NCBI GenBank assembly: GCA_963706575.1
Contig: CAVPNL010000006.1
Coordinates: 768,001 to 832,000, forward strand
Length of the DNA: 64,000 nt
Source of the DNA: an uncultured delta proteobacterium
GTDB lineage: Bacteria > Desulfobacterota > Desulfobacteria > Desulfobacterales > JAHEIW01
Direction: 5' to 3'
A program made the translations under genes and the position numbers. A model generated the notes under the pieces. It worked only from the letters and a program-made list of their open reading frames with translations. It was not told the DNA's origin and did not search any database. The stretch's first letter is position 1; each line of letters starts with the position of its first letter. Positions 33,251-52,146 of the stretch are shown here, in pieces.

Positions 33251-34426
33251 CTATCCTTCCATAGCTTGCTTCCAGAACGGCGACAGCTCTCTCAAGCGCT
33301 CGATAATGGGCGGCAATTTTTCCAGGATCACATCAATTTCATCTTCCGTACTATAACGGCTGAGGCTGAAGCGAATTGAGCCATGGGCCGCGGTAAAGGG
33401 GACTCCCATGGCACGCAAAACATGGGAGGGTTCCAGCGAGCCGCTGGTACAGGCGGAACCCGAAGACGCACAGATACCATATTCATTCATCATCAACAGG
33501 ATCGCTTCTCCTTCCACATATTCAAAGGCAACACTGGTGGTGTTCGGCAAACGGTTGGCCGGGTCGCCATTGATCAATGCATTGGACACCTTTTCCAGCA
33601 GGGTTTGCTCGAGTCGGTCCCGCAGTTGGCTGATGCGCTCATAACCATTTTCCGCCAGATGCGCAGCCGCCAATTCGGCGGCCTTGCCCAGGCCGACAAT
33701 TGATGCCGTATTTTCAGTGCCGCCGCGGCGGCCCTTTTCCTGATGACCGCCGATCATAAACGGTGAAAATTTGGTGCCTTTGCGGATGTACAGGGCGCCG
33801 ATTCCCTTGGGCGAATGAAACTTGTGGCCGGAAAGTGAGAGCATATCCACACCGGTTTCGCCGACATTGATGGGAAGTTTACCCACGGCCTGAACGGCAT
33901 CGGTATGAAACAAAATTCCCCGGCTTTTGACCTCCCGGGAGATTTCTTCGATGGGAAAAAGCACCCCGGTTTCGTTGTTGCCCCACATGAGGCTGACAAT
34001 TGCCGTATCATCGCTGAGGCTATCATATAGATAATCCATATCGAGCCGGCCGCTATGGTCAACCGGAACAAAGGTGGCCCGGTAGCCCTTTTTCGACAGG
34101 GCTTCATAAAGATTTTTTATCGCCGGGTGCTCGACTCTGGAAGTTACCAGATGCTTTTTAGCCGGATATGATTCGATGGCGGCGCGTATGGCGGTACCGT
34201 CACTTTCCGTACCGCAGCTGGTGAAAACAATCTCCTGAGGCGCGGCGCCAATCAGATTTGCCACATTTTCTCTGGCGATCTCAATTGCCCCGCCAACGTT
34301 TCCGCCAAAGGAATGCATACTGGATGGATTGCCGTAATTGGTGCTGAAATAGGGCAGCATGGCATCCAGCACTTCCGGCGCGACCATGGTCGTAGCGTTG
34401 TTATCGACATAAATCACTTTCATCAC
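33251..34426 (-). CDS. nifS: Cysteine desulfurase
   Basis: YVDNNATT, HTDAVQ, SGHKFH, SSGSACTS. Confidence 0.95.
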   Translation of the reverse strand: MMKVIYVDNNATTMVAPEVLDAMLPYFSTNYGNPSSMHSFGGNVGGAIEIARENVANLIGAAPQEIVFTSCGTESDGTAIRAAIESYPAKKHLVTSRVEHPAIKNLYEALSKKGYRATFVPVDHSGRLDMDYLYDSLSDDTAIVSLMWGNNETGVLFPIEEISREVKSRGILFHTDAVQAVGKLPINVGETGVDMLSLSGHKFHSPKGIGALYIRKGTKFSPFMIGGHQEKGRRGGTENTASIVGLGKAAELAAAHLAENGYERISQLRDRLEQTLLEKVSNALINGDPANRLPNTTSVAFEYVEGEAILLMMNEYGICASSGSACTSGSLEPSHVLRAMGVPFTAAHGSIRFSLSRYSTEDEIDVILEKLPPIIERLRELSPFWKQAMEG

Positions 34427-35250
34427 TGTACCTCCTCGACCACCAGTTCCGGCGAAACCAGTTCGCGCAGGCGGGATTCGACATAATGTTTAAGCGTAAC
34501 CGGCGATTTGGCACATGCCGCACAGGAGCCGCCCAAACGCACCAGGACCCGATTGCCGTCGACGTCGATTAATTCAAGTCGGCCGGCATCCTTTTTCAGG
34601 GTCGGATTGATCTCGCGCTCGATACTTTCTTCAATCAATTTAATTTTTTGCAGATTGGTTAAAGCCGGGGTTTTTTTCTTAACCGGGCGGTCGGCGCCCA
34701 GGATCTCGTCGATGATCTCCTGGATGCGGTCATGGCAGTTGCCGCAGCCGCCGCCGGCTTTGACGTAGTCAGTAACATCATCAATGGTTGTCAGGTGATT
34801 CTCACGAACCACGCGTTCGATTTCTCGGTCGGTGATACCGAAGCATTCGCACACGATTTCTCCCTCGATCTTTTTTTCAGGTTCGTCGAGGTAACAGCTA
34901 ATGGCCTTTTCCAGCGCGTCACGGCCCATGACCGAGCAATGCATCTTTTCTTTCGGCAGACCGCCCAGAAAATCGGCGATGTCTTCATTGGTGATTTTTT
35001 GCGCTTCCTCCAGAGTCAGGCCTTTGACCATTTCGGTCAGCGCCGATGAAGACGCGATGGCGCTGGCACAGCCAAACGTCTGGAAGGTGGCGTCCTTAAT
35101 TTTTCCGTTTTCATCGAGCTTGAAATAAAACGTCAGCGCATCGCCGCAGGCGATGGATCCGACTTCTCCCACCCCATCCGCATCTTCCAATACGCCGACA
35201 TTGCGCGGGTTGAGAAAATGATCTTTTACTTTATCGGTGTACTCCCACAT
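34423..35250 (-). CDS. nifU: Three-domain Fe-S scaffold NifU
   Basis: IscU domain (ACGD, GCASA, KMHCS), BFD-like CECF...GGGCGNC, C-terminal Nfu CAAC. Confidence 0.95.
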   Translation of the reverse strand: MWEYTDKVKDHFLNPRNVGVLEDADGVGEVGSIACGDALTFYFKLDENGKIKDATFQTFGCASAIASSSALTEMVKGLTLEEAQKITNEDIADFLGGLPKEKMHCSVMGRDALEKAISCYLDEPEKKIEGEIVCECFGITDREIERVVRENHLTTIDDVTDYVKAGGGCGNCHDRIQEIIDEILGADRPVKKKTPALTNLQKIKLIEESIEREINPTLKKDAGRLELIDVDGNRVLVRLGGSCAACAKSPVTLKHYVESRLRELVSPELVVEEVQ

Positions 35251-35678: not shown

Positions 35679-36539
35679 ATGAAATCCACAAAGCTCAGAA
35701 GAGCCGCTTTTGCGGGCAGCTGGTACCCTTCAAGTGCGGCTGAATGCGAAAAAGAAATCGAAGGGTTTCTGGCCGAGGGCAAAAAGATGGATTTTCCGGC
35801 CGGAGAGCGGGTGGGGGGCATCGTTCCGCATGCCGGCTGGTTTTTTTCGGGTAGTATCGCCTGCAATGTGATCCGCTGCTTGAAATCAGATGACCCCCCT
35901 GATGTATTCGTTGTTTTCGGGATGCATCTTCACCCGGATTCCCCTTGTGTAATGATGGCCGAAGGCGCATGGGAGACACCTTTCGGCGAAATTTGTGTTG
36001 ATGAGCAACTGGCCGGGGAACTGATAAAGCAATTTACCTTCACCCTCGAATCCCCGAACAGCTTTAGCCAGGACAATACCATCGAGCTGCAGCTCCCCTT
36101 TATCAAATATTTTTTCAACGAGGTGAAGATCGTTGCCATGGGTGTGCCGCCCGCCAAAAGCTCATTGGAAATCGGCCGGGCGGTCGTTGATATTGCCAAT
36201 CGTTTGAATTTACGAATTAAAGTGATTGGATCTACAGATTTGACGCATTATGGTCGTAATTATGGATTCGTATCTGAAGGAACAGGTCCACAGGCACTTG
36301 ATTGGGTGCGCAATCAAAACGATCGTCGTATAATCGATTTGATGCTGGACATGGATGCTGGAAAAGTGATCAGTGAAGCTTTGGCGAGCCAAAACGCGTG
36401 CTGTGCCGGCGCTGCGGCGACGGCAATCGAATCCGCGAAACACCTGGGGGCAGATCGGGCCGAATCCATTGCCTATGCCACAAGCCATGATAAAAGCCCG
36501 GGAGATAGTTTTGTGGGATACGTGGGGATTGTTTTTTAG
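35679..36539 (+). CDS. MEMO1-family protein (AmmeMemoRadiSam system protein B)
   Basis: AGSWYP, PHAGWFFSG, WETPFG, ELQLPF, STDLTHYG, VGY. Confidence 0.88.
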   Translation: MKSTKLRRAAFAGSWYPSSAAECEKEIEGFLAEGKKMDFPAGERVGGIVPHAGWFFSGSIACNVIRCLKSDDPPDVFVVFGMHLHPDSPCVMMAEGAWETPFGEICVDEQLAGELIKQFTFTLESPNSFSQDNTIELQLPFIKYFFNEVKIVAMGVPPAKSSLEIGRAVVDIANRLNLRIKVIGSTDLTHYGRNYGFVSEGTGPQALDWVRNQNDRRIIDLMLDMDAGKVISEALASQNACCAGAAATAIESAKHLGADRAESIAYATSHDKSPGDSFVGYVGIVF

Positions 36540-36554
36540 TTCAAATTCTAATGC

Positions 36555-36599
36555 AAAAGTGGCTTTTAAACCTTTGATGAGGGTATAAAAGCCACTTTT
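36555..36599. terminator. Bidirectional intrinsic terminator-like hairpin
   Basis: AAAAGTGGCTTTTA.ACC ... GGT.TAAAAGCCACTTTT. Confidence 0.65.
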
Positions 36600-36608
36600 A
36601 AAAATCAT

Positions 36609-36917
36609 CGAGGTGGCAGCCGTTTAGACGCTTGAAACCTTCCCCCTTATTGGTCCACAATGTTAATTGAATCCGAGATCACCCCTATTTAGAAAACCAG
36701 ATCTGCTCTCCTCCTGTCGTTGCCGGTAATTCATTCCATGGTAATTGGAATGCAGCAAAGCACGACAATATTTCCAAGCTGAACGTCATGCACCACGGTT
36801 TCCGTCCTCTTGACCGAAAAAGACATGGCGCCGGTGATCTCGAAATGGACGATGGCAAGCAGACAGTGCCGGGAATTAAATGCGGTCTAGATCAAATCTT
36901 AACAGGCTGCCACCCCG
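36609..36917 (-). ncRNA. Candidate structured ncRNA of unknown family (~310 nt)
   Basis: 13-bp terminal stem (perfect with one G-U on the minus strand), nested helix CGAGATCACC/GGTGATCTCG, further internal hairpins, terminator immediately downstream on minus strand; strand uncertain. Confidence 0.45.
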
Positions 36918-37146
36918 AAATCGGATTATCAGGATTTGAGTTTATTGTATAGGGAATCACCCCCTCATCAGGCTAAATGGGTACCATAATTTAGTATTTA
37001 TTTCAATTTTTTGTTGAAAAAATCTATATAAAATATTCTGTAAATTTTAATTATCTGATTTAATTATAAAATATGGCCACGCCCTTCAGGTTTCACTCGC
37101 TAAATGATTACCCATTAAGACGAATCCAGATATGAAAAGCGATCCG

Positions 37147-38877
37147 TTACGTTTTGTGCTGCTGGGCCTTGAGTATTTTTGCCCAGGTATCCCGTAAGGT
37201 TACCGTGCGATTGAACACCAGGGACCCCTCTGTGGAATCCTTCGTATCCACACAAAAATATCCCAGACGTTCAAACTGATAGCGATTTCCGGGTCCGGAT
37301 GTGGCCAGGCTGGGTTCAACCATGCAATTTGTTAATTTTTTCAGTGAATTAGGGTTAATAACATCGGTAAAATCTTTTCCGTCTTCCACCTCGTTGGGAT
37401 TTTCTTTTAAAAAGAGATGCTCATAGAGGCGCACTTCAGCCGCTTGCGCATGAGATGCTGAAACCCAATGCAGCGTCCCTTTTACCTTGCGGCCGTCAGG
37501 CGCATCACCACCGCGGGTTTGGGGATCATAGGTACAGTGCAGCTCGATCACCTCTCCGGTTGCGGGGTCTTTGACGACATCGACACAGGTAATAAAGTAA
37601 GCATAGCGCAGCCGGACTTCCCGGCCCGGGGCTAACCGGAAAAACTTTTTGGGCGGTTCTTCCATAAAATCATCCTGTTCGATGTACAGCTCCCGGGAAA
37701 AGGGAATTTTGCGGGTGCCCATAGCCGGATCTTCCGGATTGTTTATGGCATCCAATTCTTCCACCTGCCCCTCGGGGTAATTGTCAATGATGACCTTCAA
37801 GGGCCTCAGCACACCCATTACCCGGGGGGTAATTTTGTTCAGATGTTCCCGGATGCAATATTCCAACAGGGCAATGTCCACCATGCTGTCGGCTTTGGCC
37901 ACCCCGATCCGTTCGCAGAAATTACGAATGGATTCAGGGGTATATCCCCGTCGCCGCAAGCCGGATATCGTCGGCATGCGCGGATCATCCCAGCTGTCTA
38001 AGTGGCCTTCTTCCACCAGGCGGATCAGCTTGCGCTTGCTGAGCACCGTATAGTTGAGATTGAGGCGCGCAAACTCGATTTGCTGTGGATGGTAGACTTC
38101 CAGCTGGTCCAGGACCCAGTCATAGAGTTCTCGATTGATTTCAAATTCCAGGGTACAAATCGAATGGGTGATTCCTTCGATCGAATCCGAGAGGCAGTGG
38201 GTAAAATCATACATGGGATAAATCACCCACATACCCGCGGTGCGATAATGGGGGACTTTCTTGATCCGATACAGGGTGGGATCGCGCATCAGCATATTGG
38301 GGGACGCCATGTCGATTTTGGCCCGCAGCACATGCTCGCCCTCTTTATATTCACCGGCCCGCATGCGTTCAAACAGATCCAGGTTTTCTTCGATCGTGCG
38401 CTTACGATAGGGACTGTTTTTACCGGGTTGCGTCAGGGTGCCGCGATATTCCCTGATCTGATCAGAGCTCAGGCTGTCTACGTAGGCCTTGCCTTTTTTG
38501 ATGAGCTGAACGGCAAATTCAAATAGTTGCTCAAAATAATCGGAGGCATAGTACTGGCGATCCTGCCAGTCAAATCCCAGCCAGCGAACGTCCCCCTTGA
38601 TGGATTCGACATATTCCACCTCTTCTTTGGCCGGGTCGGTATCATCAAAGCGCAGATTGCAAAGGCCGCCGTATTCTTTGGCCAGCCCGAAATTTAAGCA
38701 GATGGATTTCGCATGCCCGATGTGCAGATACCCGTTGGGTTCCGGCGGAAAGCGCGTATGGACCCGCCCGTCGTTTTTACCATTTTTAATGTCTTCATCG
38801 ATGATGTGCTTGATAAAATTCGGCGGCGGTGAAAATTCGCCTGCCGTCTTTGAGGATTTGGTGCTGGCTGATTTCAT
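37147..38877 (-). CDS. glnS: Glutamine--tRNA ligase
   Basis: [44 protein letters not shown]. Confidence 0.97.
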
Positions 38878-39331
38878 AATGCTTCTTCCTTAATAAGGAC
38901 AGTGGCTCATATTCGATAACAAATTAGAATGATTTTTTTATAAAATCAAACTATTTGAGAAATATCAACGGGTTTGACGCTAAAACGATCGTTTGTCCGA
39001 AAAAATAAGGGTAAAATTGGAGTGGTGGGCGCCATCTACGACGTTCATAACGACAGGGTGACATTCATTCAAAATGGGAAATGGCGTCGGTTCGCTATTT
39101 CAAGAAAATCTTCTGGCCTCTGGAAAGGCTGAGGTTGCCAAAGCCTTCAGGTCATGCCATAAATACCGCATCCATATATAATTGAGATCTCAGCGCAACG
39201 GTTCCGATATTTTGAGTTCACCGGTTGAGGGTTTATGCTTGCGATTATCCTGCACGGTAAGGTTTTAATCTTTAATCCTATATGCCAATGATTGATCTGA
39301 CTAACTTGGGAAGTTGATTCCGGAGGGTATT

Positions 39332-40615
39332 ATGAAAAAGTGGCTGACACTTCTTCTGGCTATCATTGTTTTCTTTACAGGGCAGACCGTTTTTGCTCAA
39401 GGCGTTCGGGTGGGTCCGGATGGTGAATTTTCACAGCAAACCCTCAAGCTGCCGTACGCTTTTTACAACGAAAATTTCGGGTTCGCCGGAGGATTCGTTT
39501 ATGGTAAAGTCGGCAGCCTTCAGAAGCAGGCCACCATTCTGACCACGGCCATGGTTGGCACCAAAGGGGGTATGGGTTTTCTGGTGGGCAAAGATATCCA
39601 GATGCCGCGCATCGAGCGCCTGTTTTTGGATCCCATCGTTTCTGTGGGCTACTTTAGCGACAGTAAGTCCTTTGTTAACGGCAACCCTGATTTTGCGAAT
39701 GAACGCGCCGGCAGCAATGACTCGGACGAGGACAACTATGTTGAAGGCGACGGCTGGGACAATTTTTTCCGACTCAAGTTCAAATATCTGCTTCCGGTCG
39801 GCAACGGCCGGGATGACATCATCACCACTATTAAAATGAAGGACGGACTCCCGATATCCGAACCCAAAGGCGGAACCTCCTTGAATCCATTCAAAAGCGG
39901 CCGGAGCTACCTGGAGATGCGGCCCTTTTACCGCTCCCAGGAGATCGACGGCGACGATGTCGATGAAACGGTAAAAACCAACGGCCTTGATTTATCACTG
40001 TTCTGGGACAACCGTGACTTTGACGCCAATCCTTCCAAGGGATTCGGCTTCCGGGGCAAGATGTCGCGTGATTTTGGCTGGCTTAACAGCTCGGATTCAT
40101 GGACCAACCTGGAAGGTGAGCTGGACGTCTACTTTCCGTTAAAAATGGGGAACTGGCTGCGCCAGGGGGTGCTGGCCCTCAATCACTGGACCTCCTATTC
40201 GCCGACCTGGAATAAGGAATCAGGCGGGGAGGTTACCAACCGGCCGCCGGCTTACACCGGCTCGACCCTGGGCGGTCTCTGGCGCATGCGCGGCTTCCCC
40301 TCACAACGCTTCAACGACAGGGCCGCCACCTATTACGCGGCGGAGCTGCGCTTGATTCCCGAATGGAATCCGTTTAACAACTGGCCGCGCGTTCAGAAAT
40401 ATGTGGGCATCAAATGGCTGCAGTTCGTGCCCTTTGTGGAAATCGGGCGGGTGGCTCCCGAGTGGAGTTTTTCACGGCTGCACTCGGACATGAAATGGGA
40501 TGCCGGTCTGGGAATCCGGGCCTTGGCGCAAGGCATCGTGATCCGCATCGACTCGGCCTATTCCAATGAAGGCGTCGGTGTCCAGATGATGATCTCCCAG
40601 CCCTTTCAATTCTAA
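39332..40615 (+). CDS. Omp85/BamA-TamA-like outer-membrane beta-barrel protein
   Basis: Signal peptide, DNRD...PSKG, LGGLWRMRGF..RF motif, C-terminal QPFQF. Confidence 0.75.
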   Translation: MKKWLTLLLAIIVFFTGQTVFAQGVRVGPDGEFSQQTLKLPYAFYNENFGFAGGFVYGKVGSLQKQATILTTAMVGTKGGMGFLVGKDIQMPRIERLFLDPIVSVGYFSDSKSFVNGNPDFANERAGSNDSDEDNYVEGDGWDNFFRLKFKYLLPVGNGRDDIITTIKMKDGLPISEPKGGTSLNPFKSGRSYLEMRPFYRSQEIDGDDVDETVKTNGLDLSLFWDNRDFDANPSKGFGFRGKMSRDFGWLNSSDSWTNLEGELDVYFPLKMGNWLRQGVLALNHWTSYSPTWNKESGGEVTNRPPAYTGSTLGGLWRMRGFPSQRFNDRAATYYAAELRLIPEWNPFNNWPRVQKYVGIKWLQFVPFVEIGRVAPEWSFSRLHSDMKWDAGLGIRALAQGIVIRIDSAYSNEGVGVQMMISQPFQF

Positions 40616-52072: not shown

Positions 52073-52146
52073 TGGCTGAGGGACCAGGATTCGAACCTGG
52101 GTTAACGGGGCCAGAACCCGTCGTCCTGCCGCTAGACGATCCCTCA
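52073..52146 (-). tRNA. tRNA-Gln (anticodon CTG)
   Basis: TGAGGGA...ACGGG-TTCTGGC-CCCGT...CCAGG-TTCGAAT-CCTGG-TCCCTCAG-CCA; 74 nt cloverleaf with encoded CCA. Confidence 0.97.

Follow-up and report, generated by a model that had tools for sequence, protein, structure and literature searches.

A large structured RNA facing memo in Desulfobacterales, apparently a new family of non-coding RNAs

The element analyzed here lies between memo and glnS in a stretch of 64,000 nt (the window; contig CAVPNL010000006.1 of assembly GCA_963706575.1, positions 768,001 to 832,000, forward strand) belonging to the metagenome-assembled genome (MAG) of an uncultured delta proteobacterium of the order Desulfobacterales. 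Very probably it is a real, structured, and independently maintained non-coding RNA (ncRNA) of an undescribed family. Its secondary structure is conserved, with compensatory changes on the transcribed strand, which is the criterion by which a structured ncRNA is recognized. The original prediction, made from the letters of the window, of an independently transcribed, multi-branch, possibly undescribed RNA is supported by the missing Rfam match, the single copy, the covariation, and contigs from RNA libraries. Taken as a whole, the observations are best explained by a stand-alone ncRNA gene linked to memo, the product of which would act in trans by binding a partner; we give this reading a probability of about 0.45.

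A conserved fold on the minus strand

The 3' ends of memo (35679..36539, plus strand) and glnS (37147..38877, minus strand) are separated by 607 bp, and the predicted non-coding segment between a MEMO1-family gene and glnS was indeed found in this gap. memo encodes protein B of the AmmeMemoRadiSam system (Pfam Memo, 6.1e-45; TIGR04336, 1.2e-67) and converges with the RNA, which has glnS upstream on its own strand. The mature RNA is predicted to be about 320 nt long, extending on the minus strand from the 5' strand of its closing helix to a U-run past the 3' strand of that helix (36600..36920), with ends that are inexact and are drawn from the fold, the homologues, and the RNA-library contigs. 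On the minus strand, the multi-branch fold has a free energy of -116.2 kcal/mol (z = -4.12; 0 of 100 shuffles equally good); the values for the plus strand are -96.5 kcal/mol and z = -2.58 (1 of 100 shuffles equally good).

An inverted repeat with 19-nt arms that are 84% complementary (36608-36626 and 36900-36918) closes the RNA from end to end as helix P1, 13-19 bp long (5' strand UUUCGGGGUGGCAGCC, 36905..36920; 3' strand GGCUGCCACCUCGA, 36608..36621). The base of the conserved core is formed by helix P5 (5' strand UUCGAGAUCACC, 36833..36844; 3' strand GGUGAUCUCGGA, 36672..36683), which contains a fully complementary 10-nt inverted repeat, CGAGATCACC/GGTGATCTCG, at 36674-36683 and 36833-36842. 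It is followed by P6 with its inner hairpin P6a (36789..36832). These helices all belong to the minus strand, as do the further parts of the RNA given below.

Base pairs were counted on MAFFT alignments that had not been fitted to the structure, namely A5, with 27 cores, and A6, with 30 full-length sequences. In A5, 92.2% of the cells were paired vs 86.6% after shuffling and 33-47% with slid partners, and 18 of the 41 pairs had changed on both sides vs 9.4±1.8 in shuffled alignments, none of 500 shuffles reaching the observed count. A6, on which P1, P5, P6, and P6a were tested, gave 94.6% paired cells vs 89.2% (slid partners 33-53%) and 16 of 38 pairs changed on both sides vs 11.1±1.5, again reached by 0 of 500 shuffles. 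Covariation, which had been proposed as a check on the candidate, is thus present in four helices: P1 (6/13 pairs changed on both sides in A6), P5 (4/12 in A6 and 6/12 in A5), P6 (2/7 in A6), and P6a (4/6 in A6 and 5/8 in A5). P5 is even kept with a largely different sequence in a homologue from DNA of 72% GC. A brute-force comparison of every column with every other in the alignment of the window's genus returned mostly noise. Among wobble cells, G·U far exceeded A·C (83 vs 15), which assigns the RNA to the minus strand, and the intrinsic terminators of homologues from a third family of the order, located on the same strand, agree with this assignment.

In addition to these four helices, the fold contains parts with other kinds of support. 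P7 (UGUCGU/ACGACA), enclosing hairpin P7a (CAUUCCA/UGGAAUG), is placed at 36715..36767 by the predicted fold and the genus alignment; in other clades, read by eye, UGCCGC pairs with GCGGCA and AUUCCC with GGGAAU in this domain, which is missing from the shortest, 93-nt core form. The purine-rich junction strand GGAGGAGAGCAGA (36702..36714) is invariant in 43 of 43 genus-level sequences and is kept in the other families as GGAGGAGA(A/G)CAG, and the columns of AGGGGUG at the P5 junction (36680..36686) are invariant in the alignments. Three long-range helices of the predicted fold are tentative, with 5' strands at 36882-36889 (P2), 36871-36875 (P3), and 36846-36850 (P4), together block 36846..36889, and 3' strands at 36625-36631, 36640-36646, and 36653-36657, respectively, together block 36625..36659. 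Their sites are nearly uniform within the genus, and different sequences pair there in other families. A clade-specific hairpin is predicted at 36854-36870. Of the pairings originally proposed, the closing inverted repeat, CGAGATCACC/GGTGATCTCG, TGTCG/CGACA, and CATTCCA/TGGAATG are all present at the places given, the hairpins being part of the minimum-free-energy fold. The hairpin GGCA..TGCC holds for the closest relatives of the window and fails beyond them in the genus alignment, and the pair TTAATT/AATTAA lies outside the minimum-free-energy fold, its sequence being unconserved in the genus alignment.

The sequence of the element also occurs in sediment RNA libraries. Six runs recorded as RNA hold a small share of the 901-bp query, and among the four examined, contigs of three metatranscriptome runs from two studies align to 36612-36889 with 90-100% identity. 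One of these contigs, 284 nt long, consists of little besides the element, and loose contig ends extend, as variant sequence, as far as about 36910. At 36612-36618, contigs of two studies break off with no loose ends, which hints weakly at best at a 3' end. A transcript, another of the checks proposed for the candidate, is therefore represented by element sequence in RNA-library contigs of two studies, which carry no record of strand, ends, or level. Among the pieces listed for runs X15-X17, none lies on memo, glnS, or the leader; as an uncovered part proves nothing, this was not used as evidence.

A diverged housekeeping RNA, a miniature inverted-repeat transposable element (MITE), or a small protein gene would be the most ordinary identity for such an element, and we regard it as extremely improbable. 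A length of about 320 nt and an end-to-end helix recall transfer-messenger RNA (tmRNA) and RNase P RNA, the terminal inverted repeats recall a MITE, and tmRNA stays below the cut-off in this MAG. With tmRNA, RNase P RNA, and 6S RNA, the element shares its size class, the helix closing the 5' and 3' ends, the single copy, and a likely abundance; it differs from them in that their defining motifs are absent and their Rfam models hit elsewhere. None of the 4227 models of Rfam 15 matched the element at the family gathering threshold in a search of the whole window, in which the sole hit was a tRNA at 52076-52146. At E<=10, the region 36400-37200 gave just five hits, all to microRNA models, with 17-19 bits vs cut-offs of 80-94, and nothing relevant was obtained with divergent homologues. 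ARAGORN found 0 tRNA or tmRNA genes in 36300-37200. The genome has its own RNase P RNA (RF00010; contig C2, 319 bits), 6S RNA (RF00013; contig C4, 97.8 bits), and signal recognition particle (SRP) RNA (RF00169; contig C14, 61.3 bits), the models of which leave the element unmatched, and four of the five element-bearing relatives checked have a separate tmRNA (RF00023) of about 355 nt with 193-203 bits. The statement that hallmarks of tmRNA, RNase P, and SRP RNA are lacking, as well as the proposed comparison with Rfam, therefore came out in favor of the candidate. A tmRNA above the Rfam cut-off was found neither in the 92%-complete MAG nor in one relative (G012); since other relatives have one, its absence from the MAG is probably an assembly gap.

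BLAST detected a single full-length canonical copy of the element in the 5.67-Mb MAG and likewise one copy per genome, at an unchanged locus, in 19 relatives. With a single copy in the genome, the element is not a MITE, and the multi-copy repeat considered as a possible refutation was not encountered. Of 19 genus members, only two preserve a 57-codon frame located inside the element; in the remaining 17, the homologous length is not a multiple of three, stops occur early, or a start codon is absent, and the element is therefore non-coding. GGAGGAG and GGGGUGAU were also considered as possible mimics, or binding sites, of the Shine-Dalgarno or anti-Shine-Dalgarno partners; this idea was set aside, as the third family alters the P5 strands compensatorily and does not keep their sequence.

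Distribution, size classes, and flanking signals

Homologues were identified with BLAST, with motif patterns, and with two covariance models, R1, a model of the core, and R2, a second model from alignment A5, which includes sequences of a second family. In the genus of the window (g1), BLAST found the element in 19 of the 21 other genomes with 72-93% identity, the two genomes without a match being 68% and 79% complete. Both glnS and memo were seen at 17 of these 19 loci, and the other two stop at a contig end. R2 detected the element in all three genomes of the sister genus (g2) and in 8 of 23 genomes of the third family (g12), where only the 93-nt core is kept; R1 found it in 25 of 27 genomes of genus g31 of the second family, including 14 of 14 of high quality. 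BLAST had found none of the three sister-genus genomes and an exact motif pattern only 1 of 12 in the second family. Since the covariance models later found 3/3 and 25/27, BLAST and exact patterns underestimate the distribution. A pattern scan of metagenomes enlarged the set to 40 distinct full-length sequences and three more divergent ones. The hosts are relatives of sulfate reducers from marine and estuarine sediments. A pattern scan of genome contigs also returned loci unrelated to the element (14 of 32); unrelated matches with a fixed 18-nt gap (L027, L030, L033, L034, L037, L040, L042, L047, L043, and L052) read by eye as one conserved protein frame, not as RNA.

As far as searched, the RNA family is confined to three families of Desulfobacterales. 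A survey of the order with sensitive filters, using one genome for each of 39 families, gave hits in two families already known to carry the element and none in the 37 others; elsewhere in the phylum, 39 genomes of further families were likewise without hits. When a model search spans more than 40 genomes, its filters are stricter and miss weak matches, and in such samples only one of two g31 genomes and one of three g12 genomes were found. As the genomes surveyed are samples, and as the filters of large searches lose weak matches, these negative surveys are results for the samples rather than evidence of absence, and the range may be wider.

The homologues fall into four size classes with one shared core. 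The form of the window's genus has about 310-320 nt; that of the sister genus and two metagenome variants has about 390 nt with a long 3' domain; the second-family form has about 345-360 nt; and in the third-family form the 93-nt core is flanked by a separate 5' hairpin, a 3' domain, and an evident intrinsic terminator. All forms have P5, P6 with P6a, and a junction made up of invariant letters, namely CACC-G-GC on the 5' side, GCA after P6, GGAGGAGA(A/G)CAG, and AGGGGU(G/A) next to the 3' strand of P5, into which it leads. Among the forms, P7/P8 and the outer domains vary or are missing.

The GATAAT hexamer noticed originally is present on the minus strand at 36925..36930 and ends 7 nt before the CGGGG of P1. 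In relatives, an A/T-rich hexamer occupies the same place, and in the three longer forms (g1; g2 with the metagenome variants; g31) such a -10-like hexamer ends about 6-8 nt before this CGGGG. Farther upstream, a block conserved in the genus alignment (36951..37006, minus strand) comprises a -35-like TTGAAA (37001-37006), TGGTACCCA (36978-36986), and a small leader hairpin (36951-36965); the genus pattern is a TTGAAA/TTGAAT box, 17 bp, TGnTACCA (n variable), and then the small hairpin. Judged from its sequence, we infer that this block may serve as a promoter. A simple sigma-70 promoter scan found no convincing site beside P1, with two sites in the region vs 1.8 expected. The loop of the small hairpin repeats the GGGGUGAU of the core; it is without GGGGUGAU in L010, L011, and L013, and the hairpin is deleted in L008.

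Immediately after P1, a U-rich run (36600..36607) may be a terminator tail, and a T-rich stretch follows P1 in most homologues, not in all. Between the RNA and memo lies a hairpin with T-runs after it on both strands (36554..36599; inverted repeat 36555-36599 with 18-nt arms, 94% complementary), which is not a genomic repeat and is probably a two-way terminator. The claim that a terminator follows the RNA at once on the minus strand is thus borne out as far as the hairpin is concerned; a simple terminator scan called no site there, because the loop has 9 nt and the limit of the scan is 8. In L009, L015, L020, and L021, the arms of the trailer hairpin (GTGGCTTTTAAACC and GGTTTAAAAGCCAC) are about 150 nt or more apart, and extra conserved sequence stands between them, as though inserted into the hairpin.

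Nine nucleotides of the leader (36962-36970) can pair with the trailer hairpin in its loop (36575-36583). Six relatives have a 10-nt version of this pairing, with one compensatory change from U-A to A-U relative to the window, and in total the pairing occurs in 7 of 19 genus members. There are hints here of a processing stem belonging to a longer precursor that would be trimmed. The same complementarity could point to a ribozyme, self-processing or trans-acting, with the invariant junction as its active site, and the large, multi-domain architecture, invariant at the junction and variable at the periphery, would suit such an activity. However, the element shows no likeness to any Rfam ribozyme family, and the pairing is confined to those seven members; we consider a ribozyme very unlikely.

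The constant neighbour memo

At canonical loci, the RNA converges with memo in 18 of 19 cases in the window's genus (the remaining locus ends at a contig end), in 3/3 in the sister genus, in 22/22 in g31, in 7/7 of the g12 loci having enough flank, and in 27 of 32 metagenome loci, the other five being truncated or not long enough to include memo. At every canonical locus of sufficient length, in four genera and three families, the RNA therefore faces memo at its 3' end. The upstream gene is inconstant. glnS is found there in the first family only (g1 and g2), a UDP-glucose dehydrogenase gene occupies the place in the second-family genome G131, and no match to glnS was obtained at any of the 22 g31 loci. 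The original prediction, which placed the RNA between memo and glnS, thus understated its reach: it extends beyond the genus, and its constant companion is the 3' end of memo, not glnS.

This neighbourhood bears on the question of whether the element might not be a gene of its own but part of the 3' untranslated region of the glnS mRNA, or a fragment processed from it. The RNA does lie downstream of glnS on the same strand, in the sister genus as well, and in part of the window's genus the conserved upstream block lies no more than about 14-25 nt from the stop codon of glnS. Against an origin from glnS stand the exchange or absence of that gene at second-family loci, the T-run and TTGAWT box upstream of the RNA, which are conserved across families, and the AT-rich spacer of 229 nt between glnS and P1 in the window. 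In our estimation such an origin is highly improbable.

In the MAG of the window (G000), the other genes of the AmmeMemoRadiSam system do not share the contig of memo: the gene for protein A, with an AMMECR1 domain, is at 50402-50860 of contig C2, and the radical S-adenosylmethionine (SAM) gene is at 366990-367991 of contig C15, with one in-frame TAA in the match. Beyond memo, a NifS-like gene (33251-34426) and a NifU-like gene (34423-35250) lie on the minus strand, divergent from memo, and an Omp85-family gene is found at 39314-40615.

Two divergent copies of the core occur in a leader-like setting. The second copy in the same MAG (L126:1501-1662; contig C18:64584-64745, minus strand; 65 bits with R2) has otherwise invariant motifs altered, has lost GGAGGAGA, has no memo nearby, and lies between an MlaA lipoprotein gene and an open reading frame (ORF) with an Hpt domain on the same strand, in the manner of a 5' leader. 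The composition of contig C18 equals that of the rest of the MAG, and two other members of the genus show only one copy. In the second family, genome G249 has a second copy on contig C101 (L141:1589-1727; 37 bits), without GGAGGAGA; downstream of it come eight consecutive U, an ORF of 99 codons on the same strand, and lipoprotein-like genes.

A classical riboswitch or 5' leader was rejected for the canonical loci, where the downstream memo is always on the opposite strand; leader-like placement is limited to the two divergent copies. A less conventional sensor in cis deserves closer attention. In such an arrangement, the core would be aptamer-like, P1 with the U-run (or a downstream hairpin) would form a conditional terminator, and failed termination would send antisense transcription into memo, lowering or altering its expression. 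Riboswitch-controlled antisense RNAs of such a layout are known in Firmicutes: a B12 element faces pocR in Listeria, and a SAM element faces a cysteine-metabolism operon in Clostridium. Like these, the element is a structured, presumably promoter-driven RNA that runs toward the 3' end of one particular gene and has a probable terminator immediately ahead of it; unlike them, it is far larger than their aptamers, has clamped ends, and shows no conserved alternative pairing.

A sensor of this kind would explain why the head-on arrangement with the 3' end of memo persists in four genera and three families while the upstream gene changes, and why P1 sometimes lies just 5-11 nt from the memo stop codon. 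The 93-nt invariant core, the variable downstream domain, and the intrinsic terminator placed before memo in the third family resemble an aptamer with its expression platform, and the two divergent copies precede same-strand ORFs, namely the Hpt-domain gene on C18 and, after eight U, the small ORF of G249. However, with 310-400 nt and both ends clamped, the RNA is big for an aptamer and looks built for stability, and the spacing to memo varies between 5 and 387 nt and tolerates unrelated insertions. The U-run after P1 is missing in several homologues, both leader-like copies are without the otherwise invariant GGAGGAGA, and in the window the separate two-way hairpin already insulates both genes. 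No consistently conserved anti-terminator pairing was found either; candidates for an alternative pairing of the 5' strand of P1 in the longer forms, picked by eye, differ among sequences, and this idea was dropped for that reason. On this evidence, we consider regulation of memo in cis possible, if on the unlikely side.

A possible partner-binding RNA and its significance

The reading that we prefer remains that of a stand-alone ncRNA gene. An invariant core with a free periphery argues for a specific binding pocket and for action in trans by partner binding, the clamped ends argue for a stable RNA, and the constant place beside the 3' end of memo suggests a link of the partner or its pathway to the AmmeMemoRadiSam system. 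In mechanistic terms, P1 would clamp both ends of the RNA together, P5 and P6 would display the invariant junction (CACC-G-GC ... GCA ... GGAGGAGARCAGA ... AGGGGUG), and the outer domains would be exchangeable or dispensable, as in the third family, which is reduced to the 93-nt core. The RNA would then act in trans, with a putative protein or small-ligand partner held at the junction. Resting on sequence comparison, this mechanism, in which the RNA may bind a protein or small ligand functionally linked to memo, is put forward tentatively.

Several points weigh against this reading or against the evidence on which it is built. The binding partner of the RNA is putative only. memo is much more widespread than the RNA, both generally and in the control genomes checked, which excludes the RNA as an obligatory partner of the AmmeMemoRadiSam system. 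The convergence with memo and the two leader-like divergent copies suit regulation in cis at least equally well. As for the fold, the stems barely vary within the window's genus, where only 6 of the 63 pairs given by RNAalifold show compensatory changes; deriving the structure from the very sequences on which it was tested gives it an advantage over the slid controls; and the shuffle counts overstate significance because the sequences are related. The RNA-library contigs are blind to strand, ends, and level, and such libraries may hold DNA.

A narrower proposal concerns the system to which memo belongs. The RNA could be a ligand- or protein-sensing element of the AmmeMemoRadiSam system, either a large riboswitch-like antisense gate into memo or the RNA partner or substrate of the system; we regard this as a doubtful, if attractive, possibility.

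Among known RNAs, the closest in kind are OLE, raiA, ROOL, and GOLLD, the orphan large structured ncRNAs of bacteria. The element resembles them in being several hundred nucleotides long and non-coding, in its multi-domain fold backed by covariation, and in having been found by comparative genomics, and differs from them in matching no Rfam model, in its Desulfobacterales hosts, in facing memo, and in its much narrower distribution. Another large RNA is the smtA motif ('Soda Lake RNA') of Thioalkalivibrio, an RNA of more than 350 nt with a complex, covariation-backed fold located beside a methyltransferase gene (Nucleic Acids Res 2024, PMC11109978). As far as that motif is described in the part of the paper considered here, both RNAs are large, belong to one bacterial group, and are tied to one neighbouring gene, and the element differs from it in host (Thioalkalivibrio) and neighbour (the methyltransferase gene), a distinction made by description, not by sequence. 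The motifs described in the same part of this 2024 survey of 50 genomes are other ones. In the full-text literature, we found no description of the RNA, supplements (PMC11109978 and 2026 preprints) being outside the search, so that a listing there is possible; the main text of 2026 preprints on prokaryotic non-coding space contains none of the terms Desulfobacterales, AMMECR1, and glutaminyl. With no Rfam model and no trace found in print, the RNA family is apparently new; how it acts may yet turn out to be familiar.

Few bacterial RNAs longer than 300 nt have a structure with real covariation support, and those classes that have been characterized brought unexpected biology. memo encodes one third of the AmmeMemoRadiSam triad, the function of which is unknown from bacteria to humans. 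If the RNA binds, senses, or regulates something in that pathway, a long-standing question could become testable, and its natural forms (the 93-nt core, about 320 nt, and about 350-400 nt) are ready minimal constructs for biochemistry and structural work. Should the sensing or partner reading prove true, the junction would recognize a molecule tied to the chemistry of Memo, AMMECR1, and the radical-SAM enzyme, and the RNA would provide the first experimental handle on the triad.

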